DNA of 64,000 bases, taken from an uncultured Nitrospiraceae bacterium. GTDB taxonomy: Bacteria > Nitrospirota > Thermodesulfovibrionia > Thermodesulfovibrionales > UBA6898. A program made the translations under genes and the position numbers. The notes beneath the pieces were generated by a model. That model saw nothing but the letters and a program-made list of their open reading frames with translations, was not told the origin of the DNA and did not search any database. Below, piece by piece: positions 637 through 23,878 of the stretch. The first letter of the stretch is position 1. The number at the start of each line of letters is the position of its first letter. The stretch covers positions 896,001 to 960,000 of the forward strand of contig CAWEQH010000010.1 of assembly GCA_963811165.1 (NCBI GenBank), in the 5' to 3' direction.

Positions 637-1446
637 CTATAAGGTCGAGCACTTCTTGTGGCAGGTGCAGCAAAGATTACTCGATGTGTTTGAAACCCAG
701 AGGAAGTAATCGCCGTCGTTCTTTGTGTTGTGAACGTCGTGGCAGGAACCGCACTCAACATTGCCGCCGTAAAGCGCGTCGTTGATCGTCATGCCGTGAG
801 TGGACCCGATGAATGCAGTACCCGTCGGCTGGATCTCGTCATCGCCTCCAACTATCACTGCCTGATAACCGATTCCAACTGGATGATGGTTGCTCAAGTC
901 GCCCCCCGCGCCGATCAAGATTCTACCGGTGGCTTTAAGATCACTTGCATTACCCCTAAGGTTGGAGTCGACAGACCCGTAAGCGCCGATCGCGATCGTG
1001 CCGTCATGGCAGCTCAGGCATAGCTTCGAAACTCCGCCCGGCTGTCCAATGACTTGGCCGTTTACTCCGGAATTCAGCTGATGCGCAATGCTGTCGGGGA
1101 TGTAGGGTTGACCGGGGTCGGTATTCTGATAGCCGGTAAAATTCGCCGTTGTTACCGCATGGTTCCAAAGAGGGTAGTAAGTCAGGCCTGCTGCTGCCGC
1201 GTCAGCCGGCTTTATCGTATGGTGCGGAGCGTGGCAGAATATGCAGATTTCATTGTATTGGTTGGGAGTGGCAGGCACCCAAAGGCCTTTTGTTCCCGGA
1301 CCTGTTGAACTGAGGTCGTGGGAAGTACCTTTAATGCCTGATCCAGGACCATTTGGGCCCATCGTCGCAGAGACGAGGGTAAATCCTAATAGAAGTATCC
1401 CCATCGCTATGAAAAGCGCTAAAACATGTTTTCTCATTTTCTTCAT
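637..1446 (-). CDS. OmcE-like secreted tetraheme cytochrome c (nanowire-type)
   Basis: Signal peptide; 4 CxxCH (CIFCH, CLSCH, CGSCH, CCTCH); motif series IKGTSHDLS..ICIFCHAPH..PLWN..SKLCLSCHDG..DLSNHHPV..ECGSCHDVH..FL..S.LC resembles Geobacter OmcE. Confidence 0.85.
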   Translation of the reverse strand: MKKMRKHVLALFIAMGILLLGFTLVSATMGPNGPGSGIKGTSHDLSSTGPGTKGLWVPATPNQYNEICIFCHAPHHTIKPADAAAAGLTYYPLWNHAVTTANFTGYQNTDPGQPYIPDSIAHQLNSGVNGQVIGQPGGVSKLCLSCHDGTIAIGAYGSVDSNLRGNASDLKATGRILIGAGGDLSNHHPVGIGYQAVIVGGDDEIQPTGTAFIGSTHGMTINDALYGGNVECGSCHDVHNTKNDGDYFLWVSNTSSNLCCTCHKKCSTL

Positions 1447-1554
1447 TTCTCCTTATCCTTTTTTTGTCTGTTAAAAATAACCCTTTTTCGCCTATCTCTA
1501 TACCCCCGTATCTTTGATAGGCCATTTCTACTGATGGCAGACAATATTTTAGAG

Positions 1555-1570
1555 AGCAACTATTATGCCA
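1555..1570 (-). promoter_or_regulatory. sigma54 promoter of the omcE-like gene (TGGCATAATAGTTGCT)
   Basis: Canonical GG(-24)/GC(-12) spacing, ~110 nt upstream of ATG 1446. Confidence 0.75.
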
Positions 1571-1575
1571 TCTCT

Positions 1576-1603
1576 AAAGGCAGGCGGTTGCCCGCCTGCC
1601 TTT
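1576..1603 (-). terminator. Intrinsic terminator after the giant cytochrome
   Basis: AAAGGCAGGCGG-TTGC-CCGCCTGCCTTT hairpin just past the stop at 1617. Confidence 0.8.
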
Positions 1604-1616
1604 CTGAGAAGCAGAA

Positions 1617-4600
1617 TTACGGGAACGATACAGGTGTGTTCACACTTGATACCGCAACAGACTTAGTCGAATTCAGGACACCGTATTTGTACGCCTGAAC
1701 TGAATAAGTGCCGGCCGACAGGGTTGTCGCCGTCGTGTAAGCGCCACCTGCATTCGTGGTCCCCTGCGCAACAATCGTCCCGGACGAATTCTTCACGGTA
1801 ATTGTCGCGCCGCTGACAACCGGACTCGTGGTTACAGCGATGCTGTACTTCGTTGTAGCCGTTACCGAAGCCGCAAAGGCGGCTACAGTTGCACTCGGGC
1901 CTACCGATACGCTGCCTGATGCCGGTGTAAGGGTCACACCCGTCTTGAACGGAACAACGGTATAGGTACCGGGCTTCACATTCGTGAAGGTATAAGTCCC
2001 TGCACCAGAAACTGGAGTGTAGGTATTTGCGACAACGGTCGTCCCGCTCTTCAGACTGACAAGCATATTATTGACATTCGGGGAAGCCCCGGTCACTGTG
2101 CCTGTGATCGTGAAGGCAGTGAGCGCACCGCTCGATGCAGTAGCGCTGTTGCTTAGCCCACCCGCATCGGTTGCTCTCAACGTGATGGGGTAAGTGCCTG
2201 CCGCCGTATAGGTGTGCGAGAAAGCTGCCCCCGCATTGCCCGTCGAGGAATAACCGTCACCCCAGGTTACCCTGACAGCATTCGTCGGGAAGGCGGCGTC
2301 GTCTGTGGAAGCATCGGTAAACGACACTGTCCAGGTATTGGCATCCGTGGTCACGGTGCCGATTACAGCAACTGGAGGCTGGTTCACAGATACCGGCGCA
2401 ACCATATGGGACACGCTGGCCGAAAGGCCGGAATCTGCGTTAAGGGTAAGGGTTACGGTTCTCGGCGTGGCATCGCTATAAGTGCGAGAAGTAGTTATGC
2501 CCGTACCCGTCGTCGAATCACCGAAATCCCAACTATATGTGCAAGCTGCGCCGCTTGGACATGTAGACGTACCGGCATTGAAGTTGACTTTGTAGGCTAT
2601 CGTGGAATCGTCTGTCCAAGTGAAATTCGCTGCAGCAGCAACACCTGCAGTAGCAGGGTCCATTAGATGCGCCAGCTGGGTTGATGTGAAACCGAGCAGA
2701 TCGTTTGCGCTGATGTATGTCTTAACGTTGACACACTTGTCGGCAGATGTACCATCCTGTCCAACGCAATACCCTGTTCCTGTCATCCCGCACGGAACAT
2801 CAGGCCCCATAAACCCATAATTTGTAAGACATCTTGCTGCCTGGTCCCATCCTGCCGCATGAGCTGGGTTGTCAGGATTCTTCTCTGCAAAGATAGGCCA
2901 TGTTAAATCCAGCGGACCATTGCTCTGCAGCACGACCTTATTGTGTGTACGCGATTGTGCCCTTGTGTACATAAGGGAACCCAAACTGCCGAACGGATCT
3001 CGGCCAAACTGGAACAATGCCTCGCTGTCAGGAAGGCTACCCTGGCAATCGGCATTTACCGCGCAAGCCTGACCTGCCCTGAAACCGCCATTGTTACCTG
3101 CGCCAGTGGAAGCGCACGTATGGGGCCAAGGTGACCCCGGCAGTGGTGCACCTGTACACTGACCGGCAAACATCTGGCCAACCGGCATGTCAAAACCAAT
3201 CATACCGGCCGTCGGCGCAACAAATGTAGGACTCGGCATACAGTTGTTGACGTTCACAGGGAAACCTAAAGCATCAGCCTGACTCTTCATGCCGGCCATA
3301 GGATTACAGCCGTGTGAGGTGCCATCCTGCGTCTCCCTCAGGAAAAGGCCCTGAAGCCCTGCTATCCCGTCGTTAAAGCCCATCATGCCGGCGGTGCTGG
3401 CAGCATGGGTTGCATCGATGCCTGTATGCGGCATGCCCATCATCGCGTCAAAGCCCGCGTTCATTAATGCGGTGCATTGACCGATGGTGGTGATTCCCAT
3501 GCCAGACAACAGACTATTTGGTGAACATGCTGCATTAGGATCATTCAGATTGCCTGTCATCTGATTGAAATAATAACTGTCCGGTGTCAACGGGAACATG
3601 GAATCTAACATCCCTGCGGGGTTCGTCATCCCATGAAGCATCGACCCAAGCATATCCAGACCTGCTACGCCGTAAACGTTCTGTGTCGAACAACCTGAGC
3701 CGCCGCATGTGTTGGCTCCGCAGAACTCTTTGGCGCAGTCGAAGTCTGCGAACAGCGCCACAGGGTTCTTAATGAGATCGAATTTTCCGACAAAGAAAGC
3801 GCCGATCATCGGGACCATGTTGTCGATCTGATTGACATCACCGGCTGCGAATTGAGGAGTGGCCCTCTCCGTGTACGGCTGAAGGCCCTCGAAGAAGCCG
3901 ACAGAATACGGCGAATAGTTGGGATTTGGACCATTGGGCATTCCATGGGCGTCAAACGTGTAAGGCTGCGCGCTCGAGTGGCAGTTTAAGCAGCCGCCTC
4001 TTTCAGTCGCGCCCAGAGCCCACTCTTTCGGAGCTACGCCGTGGGTCTCATCAAAGGAGGCATGGAATATCTTTTCGAGCTTCAGTTGTTTACTGGAGTC
4101 GCTAGAGAACATCGTGGCACTCTTGGCCCTCATAGCGTTCCTCTTTGCTATGGTGTCCATTGCGAGATTGTCCGTAAGGACCCAGTTGTCAAACACAGGC
4201 GCCATAGAGCCGCCGTTGATACGGACGCCTTGCAATGATCCGTCCGCTATCGCTGCCGCCGCTACGTCGATAATGTCCCTCGCCATCGAAGGAGTTACAT
4301 TGGCCGCATTGCCAGGCCGGCAAGCGCCCGGGATGCCCGTTGCGCCCATGTTCATGTCCGGGTAGGTCGCATAGCCGGGACAGTCGGCGTCAGAGTTACA
4401 TGTCCACAAGACCTTGACGCCACTCTGACATGTCTTGATAGCGTTTGGTTCATTGTCGAGGTTAAAAATGGTTGTGTTATCGTTGTTGGCCGGGTCCTCA
4501 TTGGCTGCATCCACCCCGGTGTCATTGCCAGGAGAGTTCAGAACCAGCGGGTCACTCGTTGTGAGTCTCGACGTGGCCGAAGTGCCGAAGGTGCCGGGGG

Positions 4601-6704
4601 TCCAATTGTTGATCACGCTTATCCAGTTAGGAACTTCAATAGGCGTGACCGGGTAGATCTTCGTTTCGCCATACTTGTGGGCCCATTGATGGAGCTGCTT
4701 GGTAGAATCGCCGGAAGCGGTGACAAAGTCGTAACTGAAGTCGTATACGTTTCTGTTGCCGCCGGCCGCCTCTGTGCCTCGTTTAAATTTGCCCGCCGTG
4801 AAATCTCTGTACTTCAGTTTGAAAGGTTGAATATAGATTTCCGGTATATGGCAGGTCGTACATCCGATCTTGGCAAGATGTAACGCAGGGAAGCTGCTGT
4901 GTGTCGGGGTCGGAGGGAAAGGACTCACCGACTTAGGCGTGCCATCTGCATTAAAATATCTCGGATGGGTATTGTCGACGTGGCAGCTTTCGCACGAGAC
5001 AGTGCCGTCAATGTGGTTAGTGCCATAGGCGTCCTTGAGCGAGTCGCCCTGCGCGAAATTGTGGTCGATGCCCTGAATCACCTCCTGGGGATAGGCCACG
5101 CCGTGATCGGTCGCTGCGGGAATGGTCACCGCGCCGCCCTCAAGGATAGACGAGCCTAATCCATAATGGCAGGTTGCGCACTGCATGCCTGCCGCGTCAT
5201 GGACATCCTGATCAGGCATTTTCGCTTTGGTCACCAGGGGACCAAGTTGCGTTGTGTAAGTGTGATCTGTAATAGGCGTACCCGGCATAATGCCGAGACC
5301 GAACATTGCACTGAACATGCTCATACCCCATTTATCATTCGGGCCTGCGCCGGTCTTATCGCCTCTTTTGCCCATACCGGTCTTGCAGCCCAGTTCCATC
5401 CACCGCACAGGGTTCGAATTGTCGGCGGATAGGCTTCCCGGGTCGACGTCTAAAACAGTGCTTTTAGGGTTGATGATGAGGTAGATACCATACCCGTATC
5501 TCACCGGATTCAGCATGCCCGGGAGACCCGGTGTGTTGTCGTCACGTCCGTGACACACCGTACAGTTCTGGCTGTTCGGCGTGCCCTGGATCATGCCGGC
5601 CGAGATTGTTGACGGAACGCCGCTTATGCCGGTAATGTGCAGATGTCCGTCGGGAGCCATGGAAAGACTTGCTTTGGCTCCTATACCCAGCGAAGCGGCC
5701 AGGTTGAACTGTTGGTCCTGTATCGCCAGTGTTCTGTTGAACGAGTCGTATTTTGTGCCTGGCAGATACATGCCGGCGCCGTTTCTGCCCATCATATTGG
5801 GATCGGTCAGCGCAGGATCGGTACCATTAGGAGCCAACTGATATGCGCAGTAAGGATCGTTGATTGGTCCGAGCTGTACACCTGAACCTAACACGCTACG
5901 GCCTGCGCAGTCGATGGAATTAAGGAACGCACGACCGTTGCCCGATATGTTCGAACTATCATGCAGGTGGCAGAGGAGACAATCGACTTCTGCCTTGTTG
6001 GTACCGCTCATGTGGGTTGCGGTGATCCCGCCAATGGGATCATCGAGCGTCGGAGGTTTGAAATAATAGAAGTCGCCGCTTCCCTCCCCGGCCGAGCCAT
6101 AATCATTCCTGTCCCTGTCATATTCCAGCTGACCGCCACCGGCGTGACAGTGACCGCAGCTGAATGCCCAGTCCTGCATGCCGGTTTCCATCGATTTTGC
6201 TAATTGTGCTGGTGTATCAGAAGGTGAGCCCTTTGCCGCCAACTGGCGGTTTGAGGGTGGTCAATACTTGCCGTACATGCCCGCGGTGCTGGTGAAGAAC
6301 AGATCACCGAATTGGGCCCTGTACGCGTTGGTATAGGTTTCGTTACGTCCCTGATTCATGTGTTTTCCAACGGAAACACCATGCGCAAAGGACTTGGTCT
6401 GCGACGCTTCCCAGGTAACAGAAGAATCACTGCTTGCAAGCACACCCTGAACGTGCGTCGAATATTTATCTCCCGAGCCGTAGTCGTGGCCTGCAAAATC
6501 GATGATGTCACCTGATGAAATGTGGCATGCGCGGGCGCAGGTCGCCTTCGGGCTGTACGGCGTTGCGCTAGTCACCGGACTGCCGTTGGCCTGCAACAGC
6601 GGTACATCTCCGCCGGAATGGGCGGCCATTGCCACCGCGGAACCGGCGAAGAACAATATAGCAGAGAAAACTGCTATATATACTTGTAAACTAATTTTTT
6701 TCAT
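1617..6704 (-). CDS. Giant secreted octaheme cytochrome c (OTR/MmcA-like core plus PKD/Ig domains), predicted selenoprotein with Sec at UGA 6263-6261
   Basis: ORFs 6261..6740 and 1617..6242 are in the same frame, separated only by TGA plus 6 sense codons (..GMYGKY*PPSNRQLAAK..); ATG 6704 has a GAGGAG RBS and a signal peptide; 7 CxxCH plus 1 CxxxCH; C-terminal PKD-like repeats. Confidence 0.8.
6229..6260 (-). promoter_or_regulatory. Putative bacterial SECIS element
   Basis: mRNA UGA-CCA-CCCU-CAAA-CCGCC-AGUU-GGCGG-CAA-AGGG: two-part hairpin whose apical loop starts 16 nt after UGA, with G at loop position 2. Confidence 0.7.
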
Positions 6705-6937
6705 AAACTTCTCCTCTGTTTTAGATTCTTGTCGATGCAAGTAAAGGATGAAGGGGGGACTTTTGCGAGATTGTGAGTGGGGCTGTCAGGCGCATCCTCT
6801 AACAGAGAATCGCCGCCAGCATCTGCGGTAACATCGGTCACGGCATGGTAAGAGGCTGCCGTGGTTTCCCGAAGGCCCGCCACAAACACAAATGAGGACA
6901 AGACCATATTACCGAACTCTAATCTTAGGTTCTCCAC
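6701..6937 (-). CDS. Small hypothetical protein / upstream ORF coupled to the cytochrome start
   Basis: AGGAGG RBS before GTG; its TGA overlaps the cytochrome ATG (ATGA). Confidence 0.35.
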   Translation of the reverse strand: MENLRLEFGNMVLSSFVFVAGLRETTAASYHAVTDVTADAGGDSLLEDAPDSPTHNLAKVPPSSFTCIDKNLKQRRSL

Positions 6938-7192: not shown

Positions 7193-7209
7193 TACAATAG
7201 CCATGCCAA
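7193..7209 (-). promoter_or_regulatory. sigma54-like promoter (TTGGCATGGCTATTGTA)
   Basis: -24 GG intact, -12 GT instead of GC; UAS motif ~125 nt upstream. Confidence 0.55.
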
Positions 7210-7331: not shown

Positions 7332-7375
7332 GGGTCATTTCACCCCAAAAAAGGGTTATTTTAGTCACACGGTTG
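7332..7375. promoter_or_regulatory. Putative UAS, copy 2
   Basis: GGGTCATTTCACCC-CAAAAAA-GGGTTATTTTAGTCAC. Confidence 0.65.
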
Positions 7376-7730: not shown

Positions 7731-8303
7731 TCATTCTTTCCACCGAAGTTCGTATGCAATCTCCCATGTGCCTGCCGATACCATGGACTTGCTTTTTGCC
7801 TGCATCGTCAAATCCCTGCCGCCGGCCATTTCAACGGCTTTTTTTGAGTATCCGAGACATGCGGGGGGCAGCCAGTCCAGAAATATTTCCGGCAGGGTGA
7901 ACTTCACTACCGCATGCCCTTTTTCGCTCAACGGCACTTCTACCTTCCCGGAATTAAAAAACTTGTCCCAAAGTATGGGGTAGTTCTTTATCACGAAGGA
8001 AGGGTTCGCAAAAGTAAAGAAGATCTTATATATTTTGTTCAGGCTTTGGTCGGCGATATACTCGTAAATGCAGGCGATCTCGGAGTCCTTAGCAGACTCT
8101 AGCTCCCTGGTGAGTACCGATATCATCTCCTTAAACGCGGTAAAAGGATATTCATGGTTAACGAGAATCCCGGCTTCCCAGCTTTCCTGAGATTCCTTTG
8201 ACAGCGATTCCATGATCCGTGCCCATACATCCCCTCCGTATTTAGCTTCTATGAAGCGTTTAGAATAGAGAAAGTTGACTCCTTTGGCTAACACCTGTTT
8301 CAT
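7731..8303 (-). CDS. DUF2378/TIGR02265-like (H-NOX/V4R-fold) protein, paralog 1
   Basis: KG..F..FI..KYG..W..I N-terminus, YP(F) and LW..FF..G motifs; RBS GGAGG; 4 paralogs in the window. Confidence 0.65.
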   Translation of the reverse strand: MKQVLAKGVNFLYSKRFIEAKYGGDVWARIMESLSKESQESWEAGILVNHEYPFTAFKEMISVLTRELESAKDSEIACIYEYIADQSLNKIYKIFFTFANPSFVIKNYPILWDKFFNSGKVEVPLSEKGHAVVKFTLPEIFLDWLPPACLGYSKKAVEMAGGRDLTMQAKSKSMVSAGTWEIAYELRWKE

Positions 8304-8624
8304 ATCCTGCCCTCCTTTAGAAATTGTCCGTTCCTCATCCTCACGCTGTCGCCGCCTATGTTCGTTAGTTGAACTGGATGGCAGATTTCAGTATTCTTCA
8401 TGCGGCGTATTTGGCCCAATATTTTTCCTGTGGAATAAGATGCCAACATTTTTGTAAAGAATAATATACCCAACCGCAAGGCTTGTCAATAACTGCAGAT
8501 TTTATATGGAAGCAAGGCAAAAAGGCCGAACGAGACAAATTCAGACAGCTACTTTCGTTAGAAGCGCCATCATACTTTCTTATATACTGCGTTCTCAGCG
8601 GAATACCTCATCATTATTCTCCTT

Positions 8625-9194
8625 TCATTCTTTCCACCAGAGTTCGTACGCAATCTCCCATGTGTCTTCCGATATCATGGACTTGCTTTTTGCCTGCATC
8701 GTCAAATCCCTGCCGCCGGCCATTTCAACGGCTTTTTTTGAGTATCCGAAGCATGCGGGGGGCAGCCAGTCCAGAAATATTTCCGGTAGTGTGAACTTCA
8801 CTACCGCATGCCCTTTTTCGCTCAACGGCACTTCCACTTTCCCGGAATTGAAAAACTTGTCCCAAAGCCTGGGGTAGTTCTTTATCACGAAGGAAGGGTT
8901 CGCAAAGGTAAAGAAGATTTTATATATTTTGTTCAGGCTTTGGTCGGCAATATACTCGTAAATGCTGGCTAGCTCGGAGTCCTTAGCCAACTTTAGTTCC
9001 CTGGTGAGTGCCGATATCATCTCCTTAAACGCGGCAAAAGGATATTCCTTGTAAACGAGAAGCCCGGCTTCCCAGATTTCCTGAGATTCCTTTGACAGCG
9101 ATTTCATGATCTGTGCCCATACAGCCTCTCCGTATTTAGATTCTATGAAGCGTTTAGAATAGAGAAAGTTGACTCCTTTTGCTGCCACCTCCAT
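8625..9194 (-). CDS. DUF2378/H-NOX-like protein, paralog 2
   Basis: Highly similar tandem duplicate of 7731..8303. Confidence 0.65.
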   Translation of the reverse strand: MEVAAKGVNFLYSKRFIESKYGEAVWAQIMKSLSKESQEIWEAGLLVYKEYPFAAFKEMISALTRELKLAKDSELASIYEYIADQSLNKIYKIFFTFANPSFVIKNYPRLWDKFFNSGKVEVPLSEKGHAVVKFTLPEIFLDWLPPACFGYSKKAVEMAGGRDLTMQAKSKSMISEDTWEIAYELWWKE

Positions 9195-9437: not shown

Positions 9438-10220
9438 TCAGTTGTTAGTCGCCCTTTCGGACACAATTTCTATTTTTGCGTCTTTCCTCAGTTCATTATT
9501 CCATTCTTCGCGCCTCTTTCTACTTTTCTCCGATTTGATTTTCCTCTCGAGAAATTCTCTTGTCTTTTCAAAAGACAACTGTCGCGGAGGATTGTCTTTC
9601 GTCATCAATGTAGCCTTCTCTTTTTCGTATGCGGCCCTGAGTGCCTCGTCATCTACTTTTATTTTTTCATATATCTCGATAGCGGTTATGCTTTCAAAGA
9701 GTCGGCTTCTTTCGATAATCTTCCTCAGATCATCTTCATTCACGTTGATCTGTTCAAGATATTTTTTATACGCCTCATCTGAACCAGCCTGCGCCTTCAT
9801 TTTACTTATCACATCCTCGACAGCTTCCGGTTTGATCCTTATGCCTTCGTTTATTGCCTTTTGAACAGCCAATTCTTTAAATATCAAGTTGTTCAATGCC
9901 TCTTTCTTTATTTTCGTTGTCAATTCCGGAGTGGTCGGCTGTCCATGCGCGACAAACTTCGGAGCGATCGCATTCATCTCTCTCACAAGAAAATACGTGG
10001 TTATCTCCGCTCCATTCACTCTGGCGACCACGATATTTTTTGATTCTTCGACCCCCTTTTTGATCTCATCCATCCGTTTTGCTTGCTCCGGAGTTATCTT
10101 TGGCCCCTCCTTCTTTATCGCATTCGTCGAGACACCCTCCCTTTTGGCGCAGGAAAAGCATGTGAAAAGCACCGCGAGGGCCATCGACATCCCTGCCACT
10201 GTCATGATTATCCTCTTCAT
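9438..10220 (-). CDS. SurA N-terminal domain lipoprotein (periplasmic chaperone)
   Basis: Lipobox FSC; VARVNGAEIT..ALNNLI..EL..Q.A...GI; C-terminal LRKDAKIEI. Confidence 0.75.
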   Translation of the reverse strand: MKRIIMTVAGMSMALAVLFTCFSCAKREGVSTNAIKKEGPKITPEQAKRMDEIKKGVEESKNIVVARVNGAEITTYFLVREMNAIAPKFVAHGQPTTPELTTKIKKEALNNLIFKELAVQKAINEGIRIKPEAVEDVISKMKAQAGSDEAYKKYLEQINVNEDDLRKIIERSRLFESITAIEIYEKIKVDDEALRAAYEKEKATLMTKDNPPRQLSFEKTREFLERKIKSEKSRKRREEWNNELRKDAKIEIVSERATNN

Positions 10221-10228
10221 TTCATCTC

Positions 10229-11365
10229 CTATTCCTGTTTCCCGGCATCTTTTTCCATATTCTTATTATCGAGCAAAATCTCGATTTTTGCATTTTGTCT
10301 TAGTTCTCTTTCCCACTCTTCCCGTCTCTGGTCCTGGGCAGGAACAAGGAATTTAGGCTCTATTGCGCCCCTTGCTTCTTCAAACGTGGCTTGGTGCGAG
10401 GGCTCCTTTTTGACGACCTTTATGATATGAAAACCGTCCTTGTCTTTCATGATACCGCTCAGGTCGCCTACCTTCATGTCGGTCATGGCCTTATAGATCT
10501 CCGGATATTTTTCTTTTTTGATATTTATCTTTCTCACGATGAACGAACCATCCAGCACGAGTTTCCAGACATCGTTATCGTTCTTCATGATCGTTTTCAG
10601 TATCTGTTCGGCTTTTCCCCGTGTTGCCTCCTCATCCTTCCCCTGCAGAAAGAAAACGTCTTCGACAACAAAATTATCAGGCAGGATAAATTTTCCCTTC
10701 TCCTTTTCATACTCGTCATGAAGAAGCTTCTCGTCCACCTTGACCTTCCTGTAAACCTCTCTTGCGGTGATCAGTTCGTAACGCTGGCTTCTCTCTATAA
10801 TCTTCTTAAGGGCATCTTCGGTAAGACCGGCTTTATCAAGATAATCACGGTAGCCCTGCTCCGATCGCATGTTTTGCTTGACCTGGGCCACTACCTTCCC
10901 GATCGCCTCAGGCGCAGGATTTATGCCCTGCTTAACGGCCTCCTGCACAGCCAGTTCCTCAAATATCAGCCTGTCCAGTGCCTCCCTCTTTATCTTTGCG
11001 GTCGTTTCCGGCGTCACTGCCTCACCCTCTTTGACATATTTCGGTGCAACTCTGTTCATGGCGCGCGTAAGCATTAACATGTTAATGTCCGCGCCGTTCA
11101 CTCTGGCTACAATATTTTTTTTTGCTTCCTCCGCAGCTTTTCTTTCTCCTTCAACCTTCTTTGTCTCCTCTGCCTTTTGGGCTTCCGCTGCTCTTACCGA
11201 CTCTTCGTCCTTCTTTTCATCCTTGGGAGATTCTTTGATAACATCATGCCGCTCTGCTGCAGCAGCGCCATTGTCGATGCTGTTCCCACCGGCGTGTAAA
11301 CGGCCGGTTAAGCCAGGCACAACCATGATAATTGCAACCGCCAGAATAATAAGTGTTTTTCTCAT
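10229..11365 (-). CDS. SurA_N plus PpiC-type peptidyl-prolyl isomerase
   Basis: Signal peptide; VARVNGADI; rotamase-like MKVGDLSGIMKDKDGFHIIKV. Confidence 0.8.
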   Translation of the reverse strand: MRKTLIILAVAIIMVVPGLTGRLHAGGNSIDNGAAAAERHDVIKESPKDEKKDEESVRAAEAQKAEETKKVEGERKAAEEAKKNIVARVNGADINMLMLTRAMNRVAPKYVKEGEAVTPETTAKIKREALDRLIFEELAVQEAVKQGINPAPEAIGKVVAQVKQNMRSEQGYRDYLDKAGLTEDALKKIIERSQRYELITAREVYRKVKVDEKLLHDEYEKEKGKFILPDNFVVEDVFFLQGKDEEATRGKAEQILKTIMKNDNDVWKLVLDGSFIVRKINIKKEKYPEIYKAMTDMKVGDLSGIMKDKDGFHIIKVVKKEPSHQATFEEARGAIEPKFLVPAQDQRREEWERELRQNAKIEILLDNKNMEKDAGKQE

Positions 11366-11492: not shown

Positions 11493-12065
11493 TTATTCTA
11501 CCCAATTCAGCTCATAGATGATCTCCCATGTGTTGTCGGACAATAAAGACTTGCTTACCTGATGAATCGTGAGGTCTTTGCCTCCGCCCATTTCTACGGC
11601 CTTCTTTGAATAACCGCGACATGCCGGTGAAAGCCAGTCCAAAAAAATCTCGGGAAGTGTGAACTTCACTATCGCGTGGCCTTTCTCGGTCACAGGAACT
11701 TCAACCTTTCCCGCATCGAAGAAACGGCTCCATAGCTTCGGATAATTTTTTATGACAAACGAAGGATTCGTCAGCTGAAAGAAAATCTTGTAAAGAACGT
11801 TCAGACTGTTTTCTGATATATATTCATAGAGGCGGGCGGTCTCAACCTCTTTCTGCATTCCCAATACCTTTGAAAGTGAAGTCACCACAGACTTGAAAGC
11901 CCCGAACGGATAGCTTGAAGTAAAAAGAGGCGTATCCCTCCAGATTGTGGCGACATCGGATGGAACAGAAGCAAGAAGCTGTTCCCATGCAGCTGCTCCA
12001 TATTCTTGAAGGATAAACTTTTTTGCAAAAACGAAATTCGGACCTTTTGCCATCACTTCCGCCAT
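11493..12065 (-). CDS. DUF2378/H-NOX-like protein, paralog 3
   Basis: Same family motifs; RBS AAGGAG. Confidence 0.65.
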   Translation of the reverse strand: MAEVMAKGPNFVFAKKFILQEYGAAAWEQLLASVPSDVATIWRDTPLFTSSYPFGAFKSVVTSLSKVLGMQKEVETARLYEYISENSLNVLYKIFFQLTNPSFVIKNYPKLWSRFFDAGKVEVPVTEKGHAIVKFTLPEIFLDWLSPACRGYSKKAVEMGGGKDLTIHQVSKSLLSDNTWEIIYELNWVE

Positions 12066-13611: not shown

Positions 13612-15933
13612 TCAGAATGTTCGTTTCGGTGAGCGACCCTTTCCCTGCCCTAAATCCCGCCGTCCGGGGTCATCACTCTGCAGGTTCTCCCAGACTATTG
13701 TCAGCAACTCCTCCACATCAAGCGGTTTCGATATGAACTGAAGATTTTCATCAAGAATACCGGTTGCCGTGATGATGTCATCGGTATAACCGCTTATAAA
13801 AAGGGTTTTTATATCGGGTCTGTCGCTTTTTATAAACTCATGGACTTCGCTGCCGTTCTTCCCTGGCAATATGACATCTAAAATAAGCATATCGATAGAA
13901 TCTCTGTTTTCCTGGTATTTCCTGATCGCCTCTTCTCCATCCTCCGCCAGTATAACGGTATAACCTCTTTTAGTAAGCAGCTTCTGGAGAAATTGTCCCA
14001 CCAATACATCATCCTCTGCCACCAATAAAGTACCTTGCCCCGGAGTTATCGTCTTACGTTCCGAAGTCGTTGAGGGCATTTCAGAATCATGCACCTGGGA
14101 TACAGGAAAGAAAATCTTGAAGGTGGTGCCTTTATCCACTTCGCTTTCCACATCTATGTAACCGTTGTGCTGATGGACTATGCTATGGACGATAGTAAGT
14201 CCCAGTCCCGTACCCTTGCCGCTTCGCTTAGTGGAATAAAAAGGCTCAAAGATGTGGTCCATGGTCTTAACGTCCATTCCTGTTCCTGTATCACGCACAG
14301 AAAGCACCATATATGTTCCCGGCGTTACCGTGGAGTATTTGCCCGTATATGTCTCCTGCAGTTCGATAAGGCCCGTCTTGATATGGAGCTCACCGCCGAG
14401 GGGCATTGCGTCCTTTGCATTGGTGCAGAGGTTTATAATCATTTGCCCAATTTGATAGGGGTCCGCAAAGATGGGAATTCCGTCCTCGGCAAGAGAAATC
14501 TTCAATGCAATTTCTTCGGTAATAAGCGTCTTCAACATATCCGATATGGTGTTTATTATCTGACACACTTCCACATTTACCGGATTCATAATCTGTTTAC
14601 GTCCGAAAGTGAGAAGGTTGGACGTGAGGTTTTTCCCGAACTTGACAGCGAGAGATATCTGTTCGATACATTCCGCCGAATCCTTATCTTTGTCCCCGAG
14701 GTCATCGCTGAGAAGATGGGTGAACCCCCCTATTGCAGTAAGAACATTGTTGAAGTCATGGGCGATCCCGCCCGCGACTTGGCCAAGGGATTCCATCTTC
14801 CGGGATTGCAAAAGTTTATCTTCCAGCTTCTTTTTTTCCGTTATGTCCCTGTTACTTGCCCTTCTTCCGAGAAATTCTCCATTTACATAAATAGGTCCGC
14901 AAACATGGGACAACCACCTCACTTGTCCGTCCTTGGCAATGATGCGGAATTCCTTGTCCGGATGCAAAGGCTCCCGAAAATCGATGATGTCATTCTTATA
15001 GGCATCCCTGTCGTCAGGATGGATGATACTGTTAAGAAGATCGGGTTTTTCCATGAATTCACGCGGGCTGTATCCTGTTATTCGTTCGGAGGACGGAGAC
15101 ATGAAAACAAACTCGCCATCTTCCTTGATCCAGAAGTCGAAGTCATTGGCGAACTCCGACACAATGCGAAACTTCCTCTCGTTTTCCTCGATCGCCCGCT
15201 GATACCGCCGAAGCCCGCCGGAGAACAGCACAATCGTTCCGGTTCCGATCAGCCACAGTAAAAAATGGGTTATGAGAGTAATCCTGGTTGTCTTAGTCGC
15301 AGCTGAATAATAGGGCTGCATCGGCACGGCTATACTCATGGCGCCACGGATGTCTCCCACCCTATAGCCCTGTTGGCCGTGACATTTCACACAACCCTCA
15401 TATGTCATATAGGGCCAGATGACGCGCATATACGGAAGACCGTTTATCTCGGTAATTTGACTAAACTCTGTCTGACCCTTTTCAAATGCACTCAGGGCTT
15501 TTGTTTCCCATGCGTCAGGCGTATTTGCAGGGTTGAGAGGCTTCAAGCTGATCGTCCGGTTTATGGAGGCCAGCGGTGACTGGTTGCGGAGCAACTCGTA
15601 GGCTTGCTTTGTCATCTGAAAAGGGTTTATAAGCGTGAGCTTTGTACCGTCTGTCGTAACGACGTCTCTTTTAGGGGAAACGATATAAGGGTTCGGCCGG
15701 TCCTCATTCGTGACTTCTACATAGACGCCTCCGTGTGCGGTATTCCATCGTCTGTAAGCCAGGTTATGCTGAAAAATTGTCTGTGCCTCAATGCGCGCTC
15801 TCTCGAGCGTTTCTTCATGATTTTGATAAAAATTCAAAATCACCGAAGCGGCAACGAGAAGTGTCCAAAGAACCAGAAAAACGGCAAGATAGTTTTTCGT
15901 CCATATCCTCTCAATCAAGGCTCGGAGCTTCAC
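13612..15933 (-). CDS. Hybrid sensor histidine kinase with heme-c (DUF3365/Tll0287-like) sensor, PAS, HisKA, HATPase and REC domains
   Basis: TM-periplasmic domain with CVKCH-TM; PAS IHPDD; GGIAHDFNN H-box; GTGLGL; C-terminal REC. Confidence 0.9.
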   Translation of the reverse strand: MKLRALIERIWTKNYLAVFLVLWTLLVAASVILNFYQNHEETLERARIEAQTIFQHNLAYRRWNTAHGGVYVEVTNEDRPNPYIVSPKRDVVTTDGTKLTLINPFQMTKQAYELLRNQSPLASINRTISLKPLNPANTPDAWETKALSAFEKGQTEFSQITEINGLPYMRVIWPYMTYEGCVKCHGQQGYRVGDIRGAMSIAVPMQPYYSAATKTTRITLITHFLLWLIGTGTIVLFSGGLRRYQRAIEENERKFRIVSEFANDFDFWIKEDGEFVFMSPSSERITGYSPREFMEKPDLLNSIIHPDDRDAYKNDIIDFREPLHPDKEFRIIAKDGQVRWLSHVCGPIYVNGEFLGRRASNRDITEKKKLEDKLLQSRKMESLGQVAGGIAHDFNNVLTAIGGFTHLLSDDLGDKDKDSAECIEQISLAVKFGKNLTSNLLTFGRKQIMNPVNVEVCQIINTISDMLKTLITEEIALKISLAEDGIPIFADPYQIGQMIINLCTNAKDAMPLGGELHIKTGLIELQETYTGKYSTVTPGTYMVLSVRDTGTGMDVKTMDHIFEPFYSTKRSGKGTGLGLTIVHSIVHQHNGYIDVESEVDKGTTFKIFFPVSQVHDSEMPSTTSERKTITPGQGTLLVAEDDVLVGQFLQKLLTKRGYTVILAEDGEEAIRKYQENRDSIDMLILDVILPGKNGSEVHEFIKSDRPDIKTLFISGYTDDIITATGILDENLQFISKPLDVEELLTIVWENLQSDDPGRRDLGQGKGRSPKRTF

Positions 15934-16088: not shown

Positions 16089-17495
16089 TCATTCGTGCGT
16101 GTCCTTTTTCTCTCGAAGATGCGTCAGCCCCATCTTTTTGAGGCGGTACCGGAGAGTGTCCCTGCTGATGTCAAGTAGCCCCGCCGTCTTCCTCTGGTTG
16201 CCGTTGGTCAACGCAAAGGCCTCCTTAATTATGGCTTCTTCCATATCCTTGAGGGACGTGCTGTTCCGGTCCTTGTTCCCGCTTATTTCCACCGGTATCG
16301 CTTCACTCTTTCCGGGGAAAAGACCCTGTTGGACATCGCGGTCCGTGATCTCGTCTCCCTTTGACAAAATGACCATCCTCTCGATCAAATTCTTCAGTTC
16401 CCTCACATTGCCGGGCCATTCGTATTCCTGTAAACTCGTCATGGCCTTCGCGGACAAGCCCTTCGGCTTTAACCCGTATTTTTCACCACTCTCATCCAGA
16501 TAGTATTGAAGGAGCAAAGGTATATCGATTTTCCGCTCCCTTAGCGGAGGCATCTCGATCGTTGCGATATTGAGGCGGAAAAAGAGGTCAAGTCTGAATT
16601 TCTTGGCGTGTACAAGGTCCTGAAGATCCCTGTTTGTCGCGGCCAGTATCCTCACGTCGGCATGTATGTAATCAAGCCCTCCGATTCTCCGGAACCTTTT
16701 TTCTTCGATCAGAGTGAGGATTTTTGACTGCATCCCGTAAGGCATGTCGCCGATTTCATCAAGCAGCACCGTGCCGCCCTGAGCCATCTCAAAGAGCCCC
16801 TTCTTTGTTTCTTTCGCATCAGTGAATGCACCCTTTTTATAGCCGAAGAGCTCGCTTTCTATGAGATGGTCCGGTATGTTCGAGCAGCCAATCTCCACAA
16901 ACGGCATATTCCTACGGGAACTCATCTCGTGGATCCTCCTGCAGAGGAGATTCTTCCCCGTACCGCTCTCCCCGAGCACAAGGATCGTTACGTCGGACTT
17001 TGCCGCCAAACTGTCTGCGATCCTGATGACCTCTCTCATCGTGTCGCTCGCAAAGACACCATCGCCTATCCTGTTGTTCTTATCTATTGGTTGTTTTTCT
17101 TTCTTTAGGGTTCGTAGAACGTTAGTGATGCTGGCAAAATCGAGAGGTTTTTCAAGGAAATCATAGGCCCCCATCTTCATGGCCTCGACGGAGCTTTTTA
17201 TGTCGGCATACCCCGTGATCACGATAACCACGGTTTCGGGATTTACCTCTTTAATGGTTTTAAGGAGATCAATCCCGCTCGAATCGGGTAACCTGACATC
17301 CAGTACAACGATTCCCGGGGTCTCTTCTTCCAAGATTTTTAATGCGGAGGCGCCGGAACTTGCCGTCAAGACGGTAAATCCCTCTTTCTCGAAGAGCTTT
17401 TTCAGCGAAAGTCTAATCAGCGCTTCATCATCAACGATCAAACTTTTTTTCTGGATTATGGCGGAACTGGGTTTAGGGAATTTCTTCAGTTTCAC
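16089..17495 (-). CDS. sigma54-dependent response regulator (NtrC/AtoC family), copy 1
   Basis: REC; GESGTGK; ESELFG..GAFTDA; WPGNVREL; Fis-type HTH. Confidence 0.92.
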   Translation of the reverse strand: MKLKKFPKPSSAIIQKKSLIVDDEALIRLSLKKLFEKEGFTVLTASSGASALKILEEETPGIVVLDVRLPDSSGIDLLKTIKEVNPETVVIVITGYADIKSSVEAMKMGAYDFLEKPLDFASITNVLRTLKKEKQPIDKNNRIGDGVFASDTMREVIRIADSLAAKSDVTILVLGESGTGKNLLCRRIHEMSSRRNMPFVEIGCSNIPDHLIESELFGYKKGAFTDAKETKKGLFEMAQGGTVLLDEIGDMPYGMQSKILTLIEEKRFRRIGGLDYIHADVRILAATNRDLQDLVHAKKFRLDLFFRLNIATIEMPPLRERKIDIPLLLQYYLDESGEKYGLKPKGLSAKAMTSLQEYEWPGNVRELKNLIERMVILSKGDEITDRDVQQGLFPGKSEAIPVEISGNKDRNSTSLKDMEEAIIKEAFALTNGNQRKTAGLLDISRDTLRYRLKKMGLTHLREKKDTHE

Positions 17496-19640: not shown

Positions 19641-19739
19641 TTCCAGATACCGATGACGCAGGGTTTCGTAAAAAAGCATTAATTAGAGTCGGAAAGTTGT
19701 GAGAGAGAAGCAGAATGGACATGCGCGACGGGACGATTT

Positions 19740-20126
19740 ATGACAGAACGTAATTTCAGGTTTATATTAGGGTTTTCCCTGATGGTATTTCTTTTTTTTG
19801 AGCTTCATGCGCTCATATACGCGTATATAGGACTGCTGATCTTTGAGGGTACCACCAATTTGCGTATCCCCATTTTGGTCTCACGTCTGAGATTCGGGAA
19901 GGACCGGCCTGACACTGAAGAAGAAACTTCCCGCGCATACAAACTAAATTTCGAGGCTGAACGGGGTTTCCGTTTTGTCATTGCAGGCACATTGATAATC
20001 ACTTCTGTGGTTTTTCATGAAGCCGCATGGTTTGTGCCGTGGCTGGTGGGGTTCGGACTTACAATGGCCGGGATTACAGGTATCTGTCCGGTCGCGATTT
20101 CCTTGCGCTGGGTTGGTTTCAGATAG
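19740..20126 (+). CDS. Small membrane protein (DUF2892/YgaP-like)
   Basis: Four hydrophobic segments; ER..R and AGITGICP motifs. Confidence 0.6.
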   Translation: MTERNFRFILGFSLMVFLFFELHALIYAYIGLLIFEGTTNLRIPILVSRLRFGKDRPDTEEETSRAYKLNFEAERGFRFVIAGTLIITSVVFHEAAWFVPWLVGFGLTMAGITGICPVAISLRWVGFR

Positions 20127-21751
20127 TGAAAAAAATAGCTGGCGTATCCGACGACTGGATAGAGAACTGGCAGGCCAGCATCGCAGTGAAGATCACCGCC
20201 GCAGTTTTATATGCCATTGTAACAGTCGGGGTCGCGATCACAGTAATTTCCCTGCATAACGTTAAAAAGAATCTTCAGGAAAACTATTCCGCAAACGCCG
20301 ACCGTATCGCCTATCAACTGGGAGGCTTAGTAGATTACAACCCCGGACTCTCACCGGGTGAGATTGAAAACAAGGCGCAGCAGCTTATGGCGGACTTTGA
20401 CCTGCAATCCATAGATATCACAATCGGGAGCAGGACGATCTCACTTGGCCGACGGGTTACGGATTCCTATGTTCTGGACAGAGCAGTAAACACATCTCCC
20501 AGCCATTCCCAGGACCGGATAATTCGCCTTAAAATCTGTTATCCCCCGCTTGTCAAAACCGTCACCCATCTCAGACACAGATGGTTTGCCATTACAGGAC
20601 TTGTCACTCTGGTTTCCGGGTTCTTACTTGTCTGGGTCATCAGGATATTCATTACCCGGCCCTTCACAACGTTGATTAACGCGACAAAAGCTGTTTCCGC
20701 GGGGAATATTGATGCGAGAATAGCGGTCAACAGAAAAGACGAATTCGGCTATCTTTCCATGTTCTTTAATCAAATGATGGACAAAATTCTCAGCGAACTT
20801 ACCGTGCGCAAACAGGCAGAGGAGTCTTTAAAGGAGAGAGAAGAACGTCTGATGACCGTGATGGATTCCGTACTGACAGGCATTATAATTATAGACGCGG
20901 AAACATTCAGGATTGATTATGTAAATCCGGCGGCGGTGGAAATGATAGGGACGCCGAAGGAGGAGATTATCGGGAAGTCATGCCGTGACTATATTTGCAT
21001 TAGCGACGGGGATTGCCCGATGGCCGATTACGGTAAGACCCTTGACCGGATGGACAGCGTTTTGAGGAAACCCGGAGGGCAGAGACTTCCGATACTTAAA
21101 AGTGTCACAACGGCAACGCTCAACGGAAGGTCACATATTATTGAAAGCATGATCGATATTACCGAACGCAAACGTGCAGAGGAGCAGATCACACATATGG
21201 CTTACTACGATCATCTCACGCAGCTGCCTAACCGCTTATTGTTCAAAGACCGTTTATATCAGGCAATCTCTCATGCTAAACGTAACGAGGGGAAAACAGC
21301 TGTTCTGTTTCTTGATCTGGATAATTTCAAACGGATAAATGATTCTCTCGGGCATAGGATTGGAGACCTGCTTTTGACTGAAGTTGCCGGGAGACTTGCT
21401 GCATGCACCCGGAAGACGGATACTATAACCCGTAATGTGGCTGGACCCTTTGGCATTACCGTAGCTCGGCTGGGAGGTGACGAATTCACTATCCTCCTTT
21501 CAGAGATAAAAGACCCTGCATCGGATATCAGGAAGTTTGTGCATCGTACTCGTAGAATGCTTGCTAGACCCTTTATGCTTGAGGGCCATAAGATTTTTAT
21601 AACCGTAAGCATAGGTATTTCTGTATATCCATACGACGGCGAGGACATTGAGAGCCTGATTAAGAACGCTGACATCGCCATGTATCATGCCAAAGAACGA
21701 GGCAAGAACAACTTCCATTTATATGGACAACATATGAATTCAGCCTCTTGA
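20126..21751 (+). CDS. Membrane diguanylate cyclase (HAMP-PAS-GGDEF), probably missing a former EAL domain
   Basis: GTG overlaps the upstream TAG; HAMP DEFGYL; DHLTQLPNR; DLDNFK.IND; RLGGDEF; ADIAMY.AK. Confidence 0.85.
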   Translation: MKKIAGVSDDWIENWQASIAVKITAAVLYAIVTVGVAITVISLHNVKKNLQENYSANADRIAYQLGGLVDYNPGLSPGEIENKAQQLMADFDLQSIDITIGSRTISLGRRVTDSYVLDRAVNTSPSHSQDRIIRLKICYPPLVKTVTHLRHRWFAITGLVTLVSGFLLVWVIRIFITRPFTTLINATKAVSAGNIDARIAVNRKDEFGYLSMFFNQMMDKILSELTVRKQAEESLKEREERLMTVMDSVLTGIIIIDAETFRIDYVNPAAVEMIGTPKEEIIGKSCRDYICISDGDCPMADYGKTLDRMDSVLRKPGGQRLPILKSVTTATLNGRSHIIESMIDITERKRAEEQITHMAYYDHLTQLPNRLLFKDRLYQAISHAKRNEGKTAVLFLDLDNFKRINDSLGHRIGDLLLTEVAGRLAACTRKTDTITRNVAGPFGITVARLGGDEFTILLSEIKDPASDIRKFVHRTRRMLARPFMLEGHKIFITVSIGISVYPYDGEDIESLIKNADIAMYHAKERGKNNFHLYGQHMNSAS

Positions 21752-21772
21752 AAAGCTGAAAATAGAGACAGT

Positions 21773-22009: not shown

Positions 22010-22277
22010 GAGGACAAGAAGTTAAGAAATGTTGCCAGTTTAGCCCGGACCGTTTCAGAACCTTAATCTCGCCCGCGGGCAGCAGCATTTCTTCCGGTTC
22101 GTAAAGAGATTAAATCCTTTCATCTCCTTTCCCTCATTCTCTTCGAAGCCGGCACTTACCTCCATTTTTATAGAGCTTCAGCTCTTCATCCTTATTAATG
22201 ATGTGGTCTCCCAGTAGGTATAGACCACTTTGACGCGATAAAGGTCACATTTCGAAAAGTCCCCATCTTCCGTACCA

Positions 22278-22312
22278 GGGCATATCACCCAAACGAGGGT
22301 AATTTTAGTCAC
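22278..22312. promoter_or_regulatory. Putative UAS, copy 5 (degenerate)
   Basis: GGGCATATCACCC-AAACGA-GGGTAATTTTAGTCAC. Confidence 0.5.
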
Positions 22313-22432
22313 CAGATATTGATTAATCAAATATTATAGTGTTAGGATATTTCGTCGCTGATATGCCGAAAACGAAGGGAAAAAATGGCTATGTCCGGCG
22401 GAATAAACATGAGACCTGGGGGAAAGGATAAT

Positions 22433-23818
22433 GTGAACCTGAAGAGGTCCATGCAGTCCCGCTACGCCACAATCCACAAAAAAAGTTTGATCGTCGACGA
22501 TGAGGCTATGATCAGACTGTTGCTGAAAAAGGTCTTCGAGAAAGAAGGGTTTTCCGTCGTTACGGCAAGTTCCGGCGCCTCCGCATTAAAAATCTTGGAA
22601 GAAGAGACCCCGGGAATAGTTGTACTGGATGTCAGGTTACCCGATTCCAACGGAATCGACCTCCTAAGGACCATTAAAGAAGTAAATCCCGAAACCATTG
22701 TCATCATGATCACAGGGTATGCCGACATAAAAAGCTCTGTCGAAGCTATGAAGATGGGGGCCTATGATTTTCTTGAAAAACCTCTGGATCTTGAGAATAT
22801 CGGCAACATGCTCTCGGCCCTCAAAAAAGAAAAACCACAGAAAGATAAGAACAGCAGTATGGGTGATTTTGTTTACGCGGGCGACACGATGAAAGAGGTC
22901 GTCAGGATTGTGGACAGTCTGGCGACAAAGTCCGACGTGACAGTCCTTGTGCTTGGGGAAAGCGGTACGGGGAAGAATCTCCTCTGCAGGAGGATCCACG
23001 AGATGAGTTCCCGTAGGAATATGCCGTTTGTAGAGATCGGCTGTTCGAACATCCCGGACCATCTTATGGAAAGCGAACTCTTCGGCTATAAGAAGGGGGC
23101 ATTCACTGATGCAAAGGAAACAAAAAAAGGGCTTTTTGAACTAGCCCTCGGCGGCACGGTGCTGCTTGATGAAATCGGCGACATGCCTTATCAGATGCAG
23201 TCGAAGATCCTCACTCTGATCGAAGAAAAAAGGTTCCGGAGAATAGGAGGACTCGATTACATGCATGCCGACGTGAGGATACTGGCCGCGACAAACAGGG
23301 ATCTTCAGGACCTTGTGCATGCCAAGAAATTCAGACTGGACCTTTTTTACCGGCTCAATGTCGCAACGATCGAGATACCCCCGCTAAGGGAGCGGGAAAA
23401 AGATATCCCTTTTCTCCTTCAATATTACCTTGATAAGAGCTACGAAAAATATGGGCTAAAGCCGAAGGGCTTGTCCGCGAAGGCCATGACGAGTTTACAG
23501 GAATACGAATGGCCCGGCAATGTGAGGGAGCTGAAGAATTTGATCGAGCGGGTGGTCATCTTATCAAAGGGAGACGAGATCACGGTCAACGATGTCCAAC
23601 CTTGTCTTTTTCCTGGAAAAAGGGGAACGGCACAACCCCAGATGGGGACGACCCTCAAGGCCATGGAAGAAGACTTGATCAAGGCGGCCTTTGAGCTGAC
23701 ACATGGCAACCAGAGGAAAACGGCGAACCTGCTCGACATCAGCAGGGACACCCTCCGGTACCGCCTCAAAAAAATGGGGCTGACTCAGCCGCGGGAAAAA
23801 AAAGCCCCGCACGAATGA
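22433..23818 (+). CDS. sigma54-dependent response regulator, copy 2
   Basis: Paralog of 16089..17495; GTG start and leader homologous to 17495-17640. Confidence 0.92.
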   Translation: MNLKRSMQSRYATIHKKSLIVDDEAMIRLLLKKVFEKEGFSVVTASSGASALKILEEETPGIVVLDVRLPDSNGIDLLRTIKEVNPETIVIMITGYADIKSSVEAMKMGAYDFLEKPLDLENIGNMLSALKKEKPQKDKNSSMGDFVYAGDTMKEVVRIVDSLATKSDVTVLVLGESGTGKNLLCRRIHEMSSRRNMPFVEIGCSNIPDHLMESELFGYKKGAFTDAKETKKGLFELALGGTVLLDEIGDMPYQMQSKILTLIEEKRFRRIGGLDYMHADVRILAATNRDLQDLVHAKKFRLDLFYRLNVATIEIPPLREREKDIPFLLQYYLDKSYEKYGLKPKGLSAKAMTSLQEYEWPGNVRELKNLIERVVILSKGDEITVNDVQPCLFPGKRGTAQPQMGTTLKAMEEDLIKAAFELTHGNQRKTANLLDISRDTLRYRLKKMGLTQPREKKAPHE

Positions 23819-23825
23819 GGCCGCG

Positions 23826-23878
23826 ATGAAGCTGCAGGCCTTGATTTTCCTCATTCGCGGTTACACCGATGACATCTC
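23826..23878 (+). pseudogene. Deletion scar of the hybrid kinase paralog
   Basis: MKLQALI (cf. kinase N-terminus MKLRALI) fused directly to FLIRGYTDDI (cf. kinase REC LFISGYTDDI). Confidence 0.7.

Follow-up and report, generated by a model that had tools for sequence, protein, structure and literature searches.

Octaheme tetrathionate reductase (OTR; SO4144, PDB 1SP3, TIGR04315) has a catalytic, Lys-ligated heme 2 (PMC10153276, PMC3769277), and a selenocysteine (Sec) form of it that is annotated in GenBank, WP_331457571.1, has been tabulated (PMC13188914). MmcA of Methanosarcina (TIGR04314) is an OTR-related multiheme cytochrome that has no Lys ligand, has lost heme 2 and is linked to Rnf (PMC10153276). 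MccSep (ExtKL; GSU2937-2936, NF040886) is a Sec-multiheme polysulfide reductase of the periplasm (PMC13510729), and OmcE nanowires are encoded in Geobacter sulfurreducens and Desulfuromonas soudanensis (7TFS, 9YUQ) by a minimal cluster of a filament subunit, two multiheme cytochromes, two beta-propeller lipoproteins and a large putative barrel (PMC13712944). Here we describe a locus of an uncultured Nitrospiraceae bacterium in which a giant gene for an OTR-like octaheme cytochrome, almost certainly a selenoprotein, stands beside an omcE-type gene. It lies at the start of a 64,000-nt stretch (contig CAWEQH010000010.1 of GCA_963811165.1, positions 896,001 to 960,000), hereafter the window. An earlier note on this DNA had proposed an undescribed system in which a Sec-containing extracellular enzyme on an Ig-like stalk is wired through OmcE filaments, with folding factors and heme-sensing sigma54 control of its own.

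Reading one TGA as Sec fuses two open reading frames (ORFs) of 159 and 1541 aa into a single frame of 1707 aa (Table 1). As the earlier note had recognised, the product is a UGA-containing octaheme/PKD protein. Its parts are a signal peptide, eight heme motifs (CARACH at residue 68 and CxxCH at 195, 254, 393, 521, 583, 627 and 917) within residues 68-921, a Cys-rich domain, two PKD domains and two Ig-like domains, the Ig domains being of the PKD/carboxypeptidase-regulatory types. The protein is of ~175 kDa and has 16 Cys beyond heme 8 and neither a lipobox nor a membrane anchor; it is predicted to be exported.

Comparative genomics makes it almost certain that UGA160 is decoded as Sec. The 91 distinct codons that align at this position, a count that takes in the locus itself and a distant membrane-bound Cys subfamily, are TGA (65), TGC (14) or TGT (12) and nothing else. 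The hairpin of selenocysteine insertion sequence (SECIS) type next to the codon is near-invariant in the TGA forms, with paired changes in several (compensatory variants at loci L065, L071, L079, L083 and L095), and has decayed in the Cys forms. The homologues in databases are split at the same place. Leaving out the protein itself, 93 of 110 long homologues start downstream of residue 160 and 15 of the 17 that span it carry Cys, while all 35 short homologues of the N-terminal piece terminate at G[KR]Y, immediately before the Sec codon. Because the gene is cut at the UGA, its pieces are labelled hypothetical, PKD or InlB proteins; a RefSeq member from Thiovibrio sp. JS02 (WP_448551135.1), for example, has its start beyond the UGA and bears the name of an InlB-repeat protein. 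The read-through proposed in the earlier note is thus borne out by the TGA/TGY-only column, the conserved hairpin and the split homologues, and the host genome contains the matching machinery, namely selA, selB, selD (itself with one TGA) and a tRNA-Sec gene (selC); selA is present in 28 of 31 carrier genomes. Two paralogues, often one with Sec and one with Cys, occur at loci L040/L109, L063/L113 and L067 and in genomes G458, G466, G515 and G548, and in G466 and G458 the copy adjoining omcE is the Sec form. A tree of 65 rows (54 Sec, 11 Cys) needs five Sec/Cys label changes, four of them forced by strong branches; it comes from a quick search, the more careful one being incomplete.

The giant gene and omcE keep company in two lineages. 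In the host's own phylum (401 genomes), 16 genomes matched the giant protein: ten with a TGA copy, the host included, two with Cys copies only and four with the distant subfamily. Close OmcE (E<=1e-38, a threshold placed at an observed gap in E-values) is found in 18 of the 401, and all ten TGA carriers are among the 18. The order that holds a Desulfobulbaceae metagenome-assembled genome yielded 29 matches in 301 genomes, 19 of them strong. For these Desulfobulbales, close OmcE occurs in 13 of 19 carriers versus 2 of 20 non-carriers (the first 20 listed), and in 12 of those 13 carriers the two genes share a contig, within ~17 kb. Carrier counts are descriptive, as related genomes are not independent. 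The distribution is patchy: the system occurs in none of seven same-genus genomes. A single-protein pattern scan of species genomes, which was too insensitive, found one locus.

A census of neighbours covered 31 distinct loci, each with at least 6 kb of flank. A SurA-like gene stands near the giant gene at 25 loci, which fits the dedicated folding partner of the earlier note; omcE follows at 17, a barrel gene at 14, a close paralogue of the sigma54 activator at 9, a CxxxxCH cytochrome at 5, the CxxCH kinase at 3 and a V4R-like gene at 2, with REC-PilZ and GGDEF genes at none. Thiovibrio-type loci have no omcE; they keep the SurA-like gene and often have c7-type cytochromes. The earlier note had staked its system on synteny and co-regulation, and these neighbourhoods, together with the shared motifs described next, did not overturn it.

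A sigma54-type site with a score of 14.2 or more out of 16.5 stands before 42 of 73 family genes (shuffle rate 0.3%) and 22 of 25 omcE genes (shuffle 3%). The enhancer palindrome GGGT-N6-ACCC, defined from this window and counted here as the strict pattern only, precedes 24 of 73 family genes (1.1 expected) and 12 of 25 omcE genes (0.3 expected). Since promoters and enhancer are conserved upstream of both genes in the two lineages, co-regulation of the giant gene and omcE is well supported by these motifs. In the host, the tandem upstream activating sequence (UAS) has seven copies in the 3.66-Mb genome, six of them within the cluster: the two in Table 1, those at 13306-13341, 17800-17835 and 22278-22312, and one left of the window. 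The shared UAS and -24/-12 motifs of the earlier note are therefore real. The seventh copy, at G000:C10:738096, is far from the cluster, between YbhB-like and Ysc84-like genes (labels from their N-termini). Three sigma54 sites (223-237, 13030-13044 and 18097-18111) have a TAGCAC variant of the -24 box (G-25 to A), which recurs at the expected position in homologous loci too (L037, L048) and so may be functional in this lineage.

The omcE product is a genuine OmcE homologue, as the earlier note had it, matching the filament structures 9YUQ (E 2e-18) and 7TFS (E 4e-16), and is predicted to form filaments. The system extends at least 14 kb left of the window (L007), with an NHL lipoprotein, a pentaheme cytochrome, a 684-aa putative beta-barrel, a SurA/PpiC protein and a second NHL protein, further an 11-heme cytochrome, two CxxxxCH/PKD cytochromes and a c7-type cytochrome. 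No NCBIfam model matches the 684-aa gene, which we call a putative barrel from its position, size and synteny. One CxxxxCH cytochrome of the cluster has a tail 67% identical over 346 aa to that of the giant protein, and the two may therefore be bound for the same place. The type II secretion and cytochrome c assembly genes that the earlier note looked to are represented in the genome by GspD, over cut-off, and three cytochrome c assembly genes. An omcE-like gene at the end of C8 (G000:C8:641308-641925) and a SurA/NHL/multiheme set at the start of C7 (C7:1171-8443) are possibly one second nanowire cluster split between contigs.

What, then, does the giant protein resemble? An AlphaFold2 model of residues 40-960 (mean predicted local distance difference test score, pLDDT, 78.5; predicted template modelling score 0.84) gave OTR 1SP3 as the sole chain at Z>=5 among 48,161 in VIA-align (Z 8.6, root-mean-square deviation 4.0, 324 residues aligned) and as the sole Foldseek match at E<=0.001 (E 7.7e-4), so the modelled resemblance to OTR has moderate support. 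The eight heme motifs correspond one by one to those of OTR, with common flanks. Sequence search against solved structures found the PKD domains only. For the Cys-rich domain (residues 922-1370) a fold search with residues 930-1375 (pLDDT 76) gave nothing above Z 2.4, which does not by itself make it a new fold. With a natural Cys homologue as the query, the Atlas gave generic multiheme clusters only. The heme-2 motif is retained in 90 of 90 aligned rows. With seven conserved non-motif His (120, 127, 514, 560, 614, 621 and 900) for eight hemes, one heme, most simply heme 2, would have a non-His face; the candidate ligands are the conserved Cys452 (93%), Met155 and Sec160.

Both Sec160 and the NNFC cysteine of OTR, which we take to be Cys64, lie in the interval between hemes 1 and 2. 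The two positions are presumably equivalent, although the profile alignment runs out of register and the model is weak just before Sec. The NNFC cysteine is UGA-coded in one of 29 canonical OTRs recovered (L187, G508:C171:2105-3454). At the residue eight places before U/C, where the Lys ligand of OTR would fall if U160 is the NNFC Cys, 79 of 93 loci have Ser and none has Lys; position -2 from U/C is Lys in 65 and Arg in 28. The heme 1-heme 2 region is also present in a membrane-anchored octaheme subfamily of smaller size, ~760-900 aa (L149, L150, L096, L098-L108; G695, G438, G616, G715, G700). Its members mostly have Cys (GNYGGNWCSPAP); some have UGA and the same hairpin (GRYUSAAP, GKWUGASF), so that a Sec-OTR superfamily extends beyond the giant form.

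In the system that we propose, a sigma54-switched cluster would produce a Sec octaheme cytochrome that acts on S-S bonds and trades electrons with OmcE filaments; as a complete chain this is tentative, and we rate it below an even balance. Its parts differ in strength, the reading of UGA160 as Sec being the firmest. A phosphorylated REC-AAA+ activator would bind the GGGT-N6-ACCC tandem enhancer and open the sigma54 promoters of the giant gene, omcE and the barrel operon. The promoter motifs are observed and conserved; that this activator binds the UAS and takes its signal from the CxxCH kinase is likely. The giant protein would leave by the Sec export pathway, gain its hemes and fold with the neighbouring SurA-like chaperone; a signal peptide, three cytochrome c assembly genes and SurA synteny are observed. 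Seven of its hemes would serve as bis-His wires, and heme 2 quite probably has Sec160 on or beside its open face in place of the Lys/water site of OTR, a geometry to which the seven conserved non-motif His and the motif order point. By analogy with the proposal for MccSep, the selenolate would then attack an S-S bond and be reset by the heme chain, which we favour slightly. The Ig tail would take the enzyme to the surface, where electrons would be exchanged with OmcE and the CxxxxCH/PKD cytochromes; here we see the balance as just short of even. The substrate would be polysulfide or elemental sulfur (S0), its S-S bonds cleaved by the enzyme, and the direction either reduction or the oxidative arm of disproportionation. 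The Thiovibrio type species, a strain other than that of the RefSeq member, disproportionates S0 (10.1101/2022.10.27.514068). In a bolder version, Sec160 would coordinate heme 2 axially, making it a natural selenolate-bound c-type heme, and the surface enzyme would plug into OmcE nanowires and activate solid S0 outside the cell. It would then be a candidate, hidden by the UGA split, for the opening step by which Desulfobulbales and Nitrospirota reduce or disproportionate S0. This version strikes us as improbable.

Several observations weigh against this proposal. The Z score of the OTR match is middling on the VIA-align scale, the pLDDT drops below 50 at residues ~126-158, directly before Sec, and the profile-profile alignment to OTR, at 98.6% probability, is out of register by two hemes, so that it does not place Sec160. 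dsrA, found in 28 of 29 carriers, is equally common outside them, in all 13 non-carriers tested. MccSep is present in 17 of 29 carriers, which do not obviously need a second polysulfide reductase. An Ig-like domain is no proof of surface location, for MccSep carries one and resides in the periplasm (PMC13510729). As 6 of 19 Desulfobulbales carriers and G017 are without close OmcE, the wire is not a strict requirement of the enzyme. This Sec sulfur enzyme might instead sit in the periplasm like MccSep and OTR, unwired, and share a regulon with omcE since both serve insoluble acceptors. Besides the Ig stem of MccSep, the want of a lipobox or membrane anchor and the Thiovibrio-type loci, with SurA-like gene and c7-type cytochromes and without omcE, agree with such a placement. 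It sits less well with a mass of ~175 kDa, 16 Cys after heme 8, a PKD tail in common with the CxxxxCH cytochrome, omcE adjacency retained in two lineages and a periplasmic MccSep already in place in 17 of 29 carriers, and we regard it as rather unlikely. The substrates that OTR reduces include nitrite and hydroxylamine besides tetrathionate (PMC10153276), and MccSep reduces selenite (PMC13510729); activities of this kind could be the main job of the giant enzyme, as a reductase of nitrite, hydroxylamine or selenium/tellurium oxyanions. We consider this very improbable, as the family has not kept the Lys-ligated site characteristic of OTR and no recurrent N-oxide or Se-oxyanion genes appear among the neighbourhoods listed.

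The linkage to OmcE can also be turned another way. The studied roles of OmcE are in mineral, electrode and cell-cell electron transfer (PMC13712944), the Lys of OTR is absent as it is in MmcA (PMC10153276), and comparable clusters of cytochromes, peptidyl-prolyl isomerase and propeller have been proposed for the partners of anaerobic methanotrophic archaea (PMC5539420). The giant protein could then serve, like MmcA, as a redox terminus towards metals, humics or partner cells, with Sec ligating or tuning a heme and no S-S chemistry. The catalytic heme motif that MmcA lost is kept in every aligned row here, though, the Sec/Cys-only column and maintained SECIS indicate a reactive chalcogen, and carriers without omcE exist; such a role is unlikely in our view. 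A last alternative is that the UGA really ends translation or stems from faulty assembly, leaving a split or dead gene; the frameshifts elsewhere in the assembly (dsrA is in four pieces) would be a precedent. We rejected it: the same UGA and hairpin recur at 65 distinct loci, with Cys in the remainder, and the downstream part alone would lack a signal peptide. This explanation is effectively refuted.

Frameshifts are in fact frequent in this genome. Many of them break dsrAB and several dsrMKJOP genes (G000:C8:231886-243583), and gspD on C10, an OTR-like gene (C10:1068238-1069703) and atp genes in the window (41089-41959) are apparently split as well; these are probably assembly indel errors rather than true decay.

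The remaining features of the locus are listed in Table 1.

Table 1 Features of the locus, with positions counted from the first letter of the window.
Feature	Position	Strand	Remarks
UAS and TAGCAC-type sigma54 site before NHL/barrel operon left of the window	223..519	(-)	UAS 484-519, site 223-237
omcE-type tetraheme cytochrome (nanowire subunit)	637..1446	(-)	269 aa; structure matches
Sigma54 -24/-12 site upstream of omcE	1556..1570	(-)	site kept in 22/25 omcE upstream regions
Giant Sec-containing OTR-fold octaheme cytochrome	1617..6740	(-)	likely start ATG 6704
SECIS-type hairpin core	6236..6249	(-)	14-27 nt from UGA
In-frame UGA, Sec160	6261..6263	(-)	sole UGA in frame; motif G-M-x-G-[KR]-Y-U-P-P-S-N-R-Q
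Sigma54-like site upstream of giant gene	7194..7208	(-)	-12 C>T; scores 13.8
Tandem enhancer (UAS) GTGACTAAAATAACCC-n-GGGTGAAATGACCC	7332..7368	(-)	
Two tandem DUF2378-like (V4R/H-NOX-like) paralogues	7731..9194	(-)	without heme His; accessory, local
Two SurA-like exported chaperones	9438..11365	(-)	SurA-like gene is the giant gene's most constant neighbour
V4R-like paralogue and REC protein with degenerate PilZ-like tail	11493..12965	(-)	inverted copy 18176-19640(+)
Hybrid histidine kinase	13612..15933	(-)	periplasmic Tll0287-type domain with CVKCH (residue 181), then PAS, HisKA, HATPase, REC
REC-AAA+-HTH sigma54 activator	16089..17495	(-)	loop GAFTDA; inverted paralogue 22385-23818(+)
HAMP-PAS-GGDEF protein	20027..21751	(+)	within duplicated block; not conserved with the system

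The core of the system is real, and its regulatory fringe was overstated in the first reading. An inverted duplication (11443-13426 versus 17713-19690, 92%; 16080-17577 versus 22355-23827, 84%) is the source of the paired REC, V4R-like and sigma54 activator genes and of two UAS copies, so the abundance of regulators is partly local. The promoter blocks of the REC gene and of the barrel operon (141-549) are moreover copies at 75%. The sigma54 activators of the earlier note are there as two REC-AAA+-HTH proteins, of which the one at 16089-17495 is the likely UAS binder. Both SurA-like genes are there too, the PpiC domain being confined to the one at 10229-11365. The CxxCH-sensor kinase, present here and seldom adjacent to the giant gene elsewhere, has in its Tll0287-type domain the only credible heme sensor at the locus. 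H-NOX heme sensors are defined by a proximal His and a YxSxR motif. The four V4R-like proteins (~190 aa each), taken for H-NOX-like heme sensors in the earlier note, have neither, their sole His being residue 130 in a strand motif; Pfam HNOB matches one of the four at 21.2 bits, below its cut-off of 25.5, and their Atlas neighbours are unnamed or DUF2378. We therefore dropped the H-NOX label in favour of a DUF2378-type likeness. PilZ receptors of cyclic di-GMP are likewise defined by RxxxR and D/NxSxxG motifs. The tails of the two REC proteins lack RxxxR and DxSxxG and have no Pfam match, and the PilZ label was rejected; the REC proteins exist, as does the GGDEF enzyme, and in the census neither is part of the system. 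A low-complexity 142-aa ORF at 21660-22088 (-), without a Pfam match, overlaps the end of the GGDEF gene downstream of a UAS copy. Elsewhere in the window, 35407-38814 (-) has an apparent TonB-dependent receptor gene, then a radical-SAM/SPASM-like gene and a two-component system (labels from sequence appearance).

The giant family is widespread in dsrAB-bearing anaerobes and hidden by UGA-split annotation. No NCBIfam model matches it over cut-off, and a term search of BSepDB, as far as its description in PMC13326102 was accessible, gave no match. Among the 119 prokaryotic selenoprotein families of a published survey, as far as it was accessible, are ExtKL, the GSU2204 family (one protein) and the GenBank-annotated OTR, and this family is absent (PMC13188914). 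Our literature search, mostly outside subscription journals, found neither the family nor anything joining sulfur disproportionation, multiheme cytochromes and selenocysteine. Of the novelty claimed in the earlier note, the giant family and its omcE link stand, whereas Sec-multiheme sulfur chemistry (MccSep) and a Sec-type canonical OTR had already been published. If our proposal is right, the family is a further, independent joining of selenocysteine to a heme chain and the first Sec-heme enzyme genetically tied to cytochrome nanowires. Genomic markers for S0 disproportionation were not identified in the preprint on Thiovibrio frasassiensis (10.1101/2022.10.27.514068). The giant enzyme is a concrete candidate for the attack on insoluble sulfur.

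Compared with the omcE clusters of Geobacter and Desulfuromonas, the host locus has the complete minimal set plus extras, and differs in being flanked by the Sec octaheme gene, SurA-like genes and a sigma54 enhancer regulon; the accessible text of PMC13712944 mentions no such Sec enzyme beside omcE. With MmcA the giant family shares the missing Lys ligand, but it keeps heme 2 and adds Sec. MccSep, too, is a multiheme protein of c type that has a single Sec, a SECIS and an Ig-like part; it is exported, as the giant protein is predicted to be, occurs in the same host phyla and is the model for the chemistry proposed here (PMC13510729). Identity with MccSep was nonetheless rejected: MccSep has five hemes, one of them His/Cys-ligated, and Sec325 in a C-terminal Ig domain (PMC13510729), whereas the giant protein has eight, with Sec between hemes 1 and 2, and does not match NF040886, for which the host genome has nothing over cut-off. 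OTR and the giant family share fold, heme-motif order, flanks and the Cys/Sec between hemes 1 and 2. The giant protein scores 19.8 bits against TIGR04315, however, and its homologues 20-37, far below the cut-off of 375; it lacks the conserved Lys ligand, has CxxxCH at heme 1 and a core of ~900 aa versus ~440 in OTR, adds the Cys-rich domain and PKD/Ig tail at twice the length of OTR, is mostly a Sec protein where OTR rarely is, and is linked to omcE and SurA. The giant family is thus OTR-like in build, would be MccSep-like in its chemistry, and falls outside the definitions of both.

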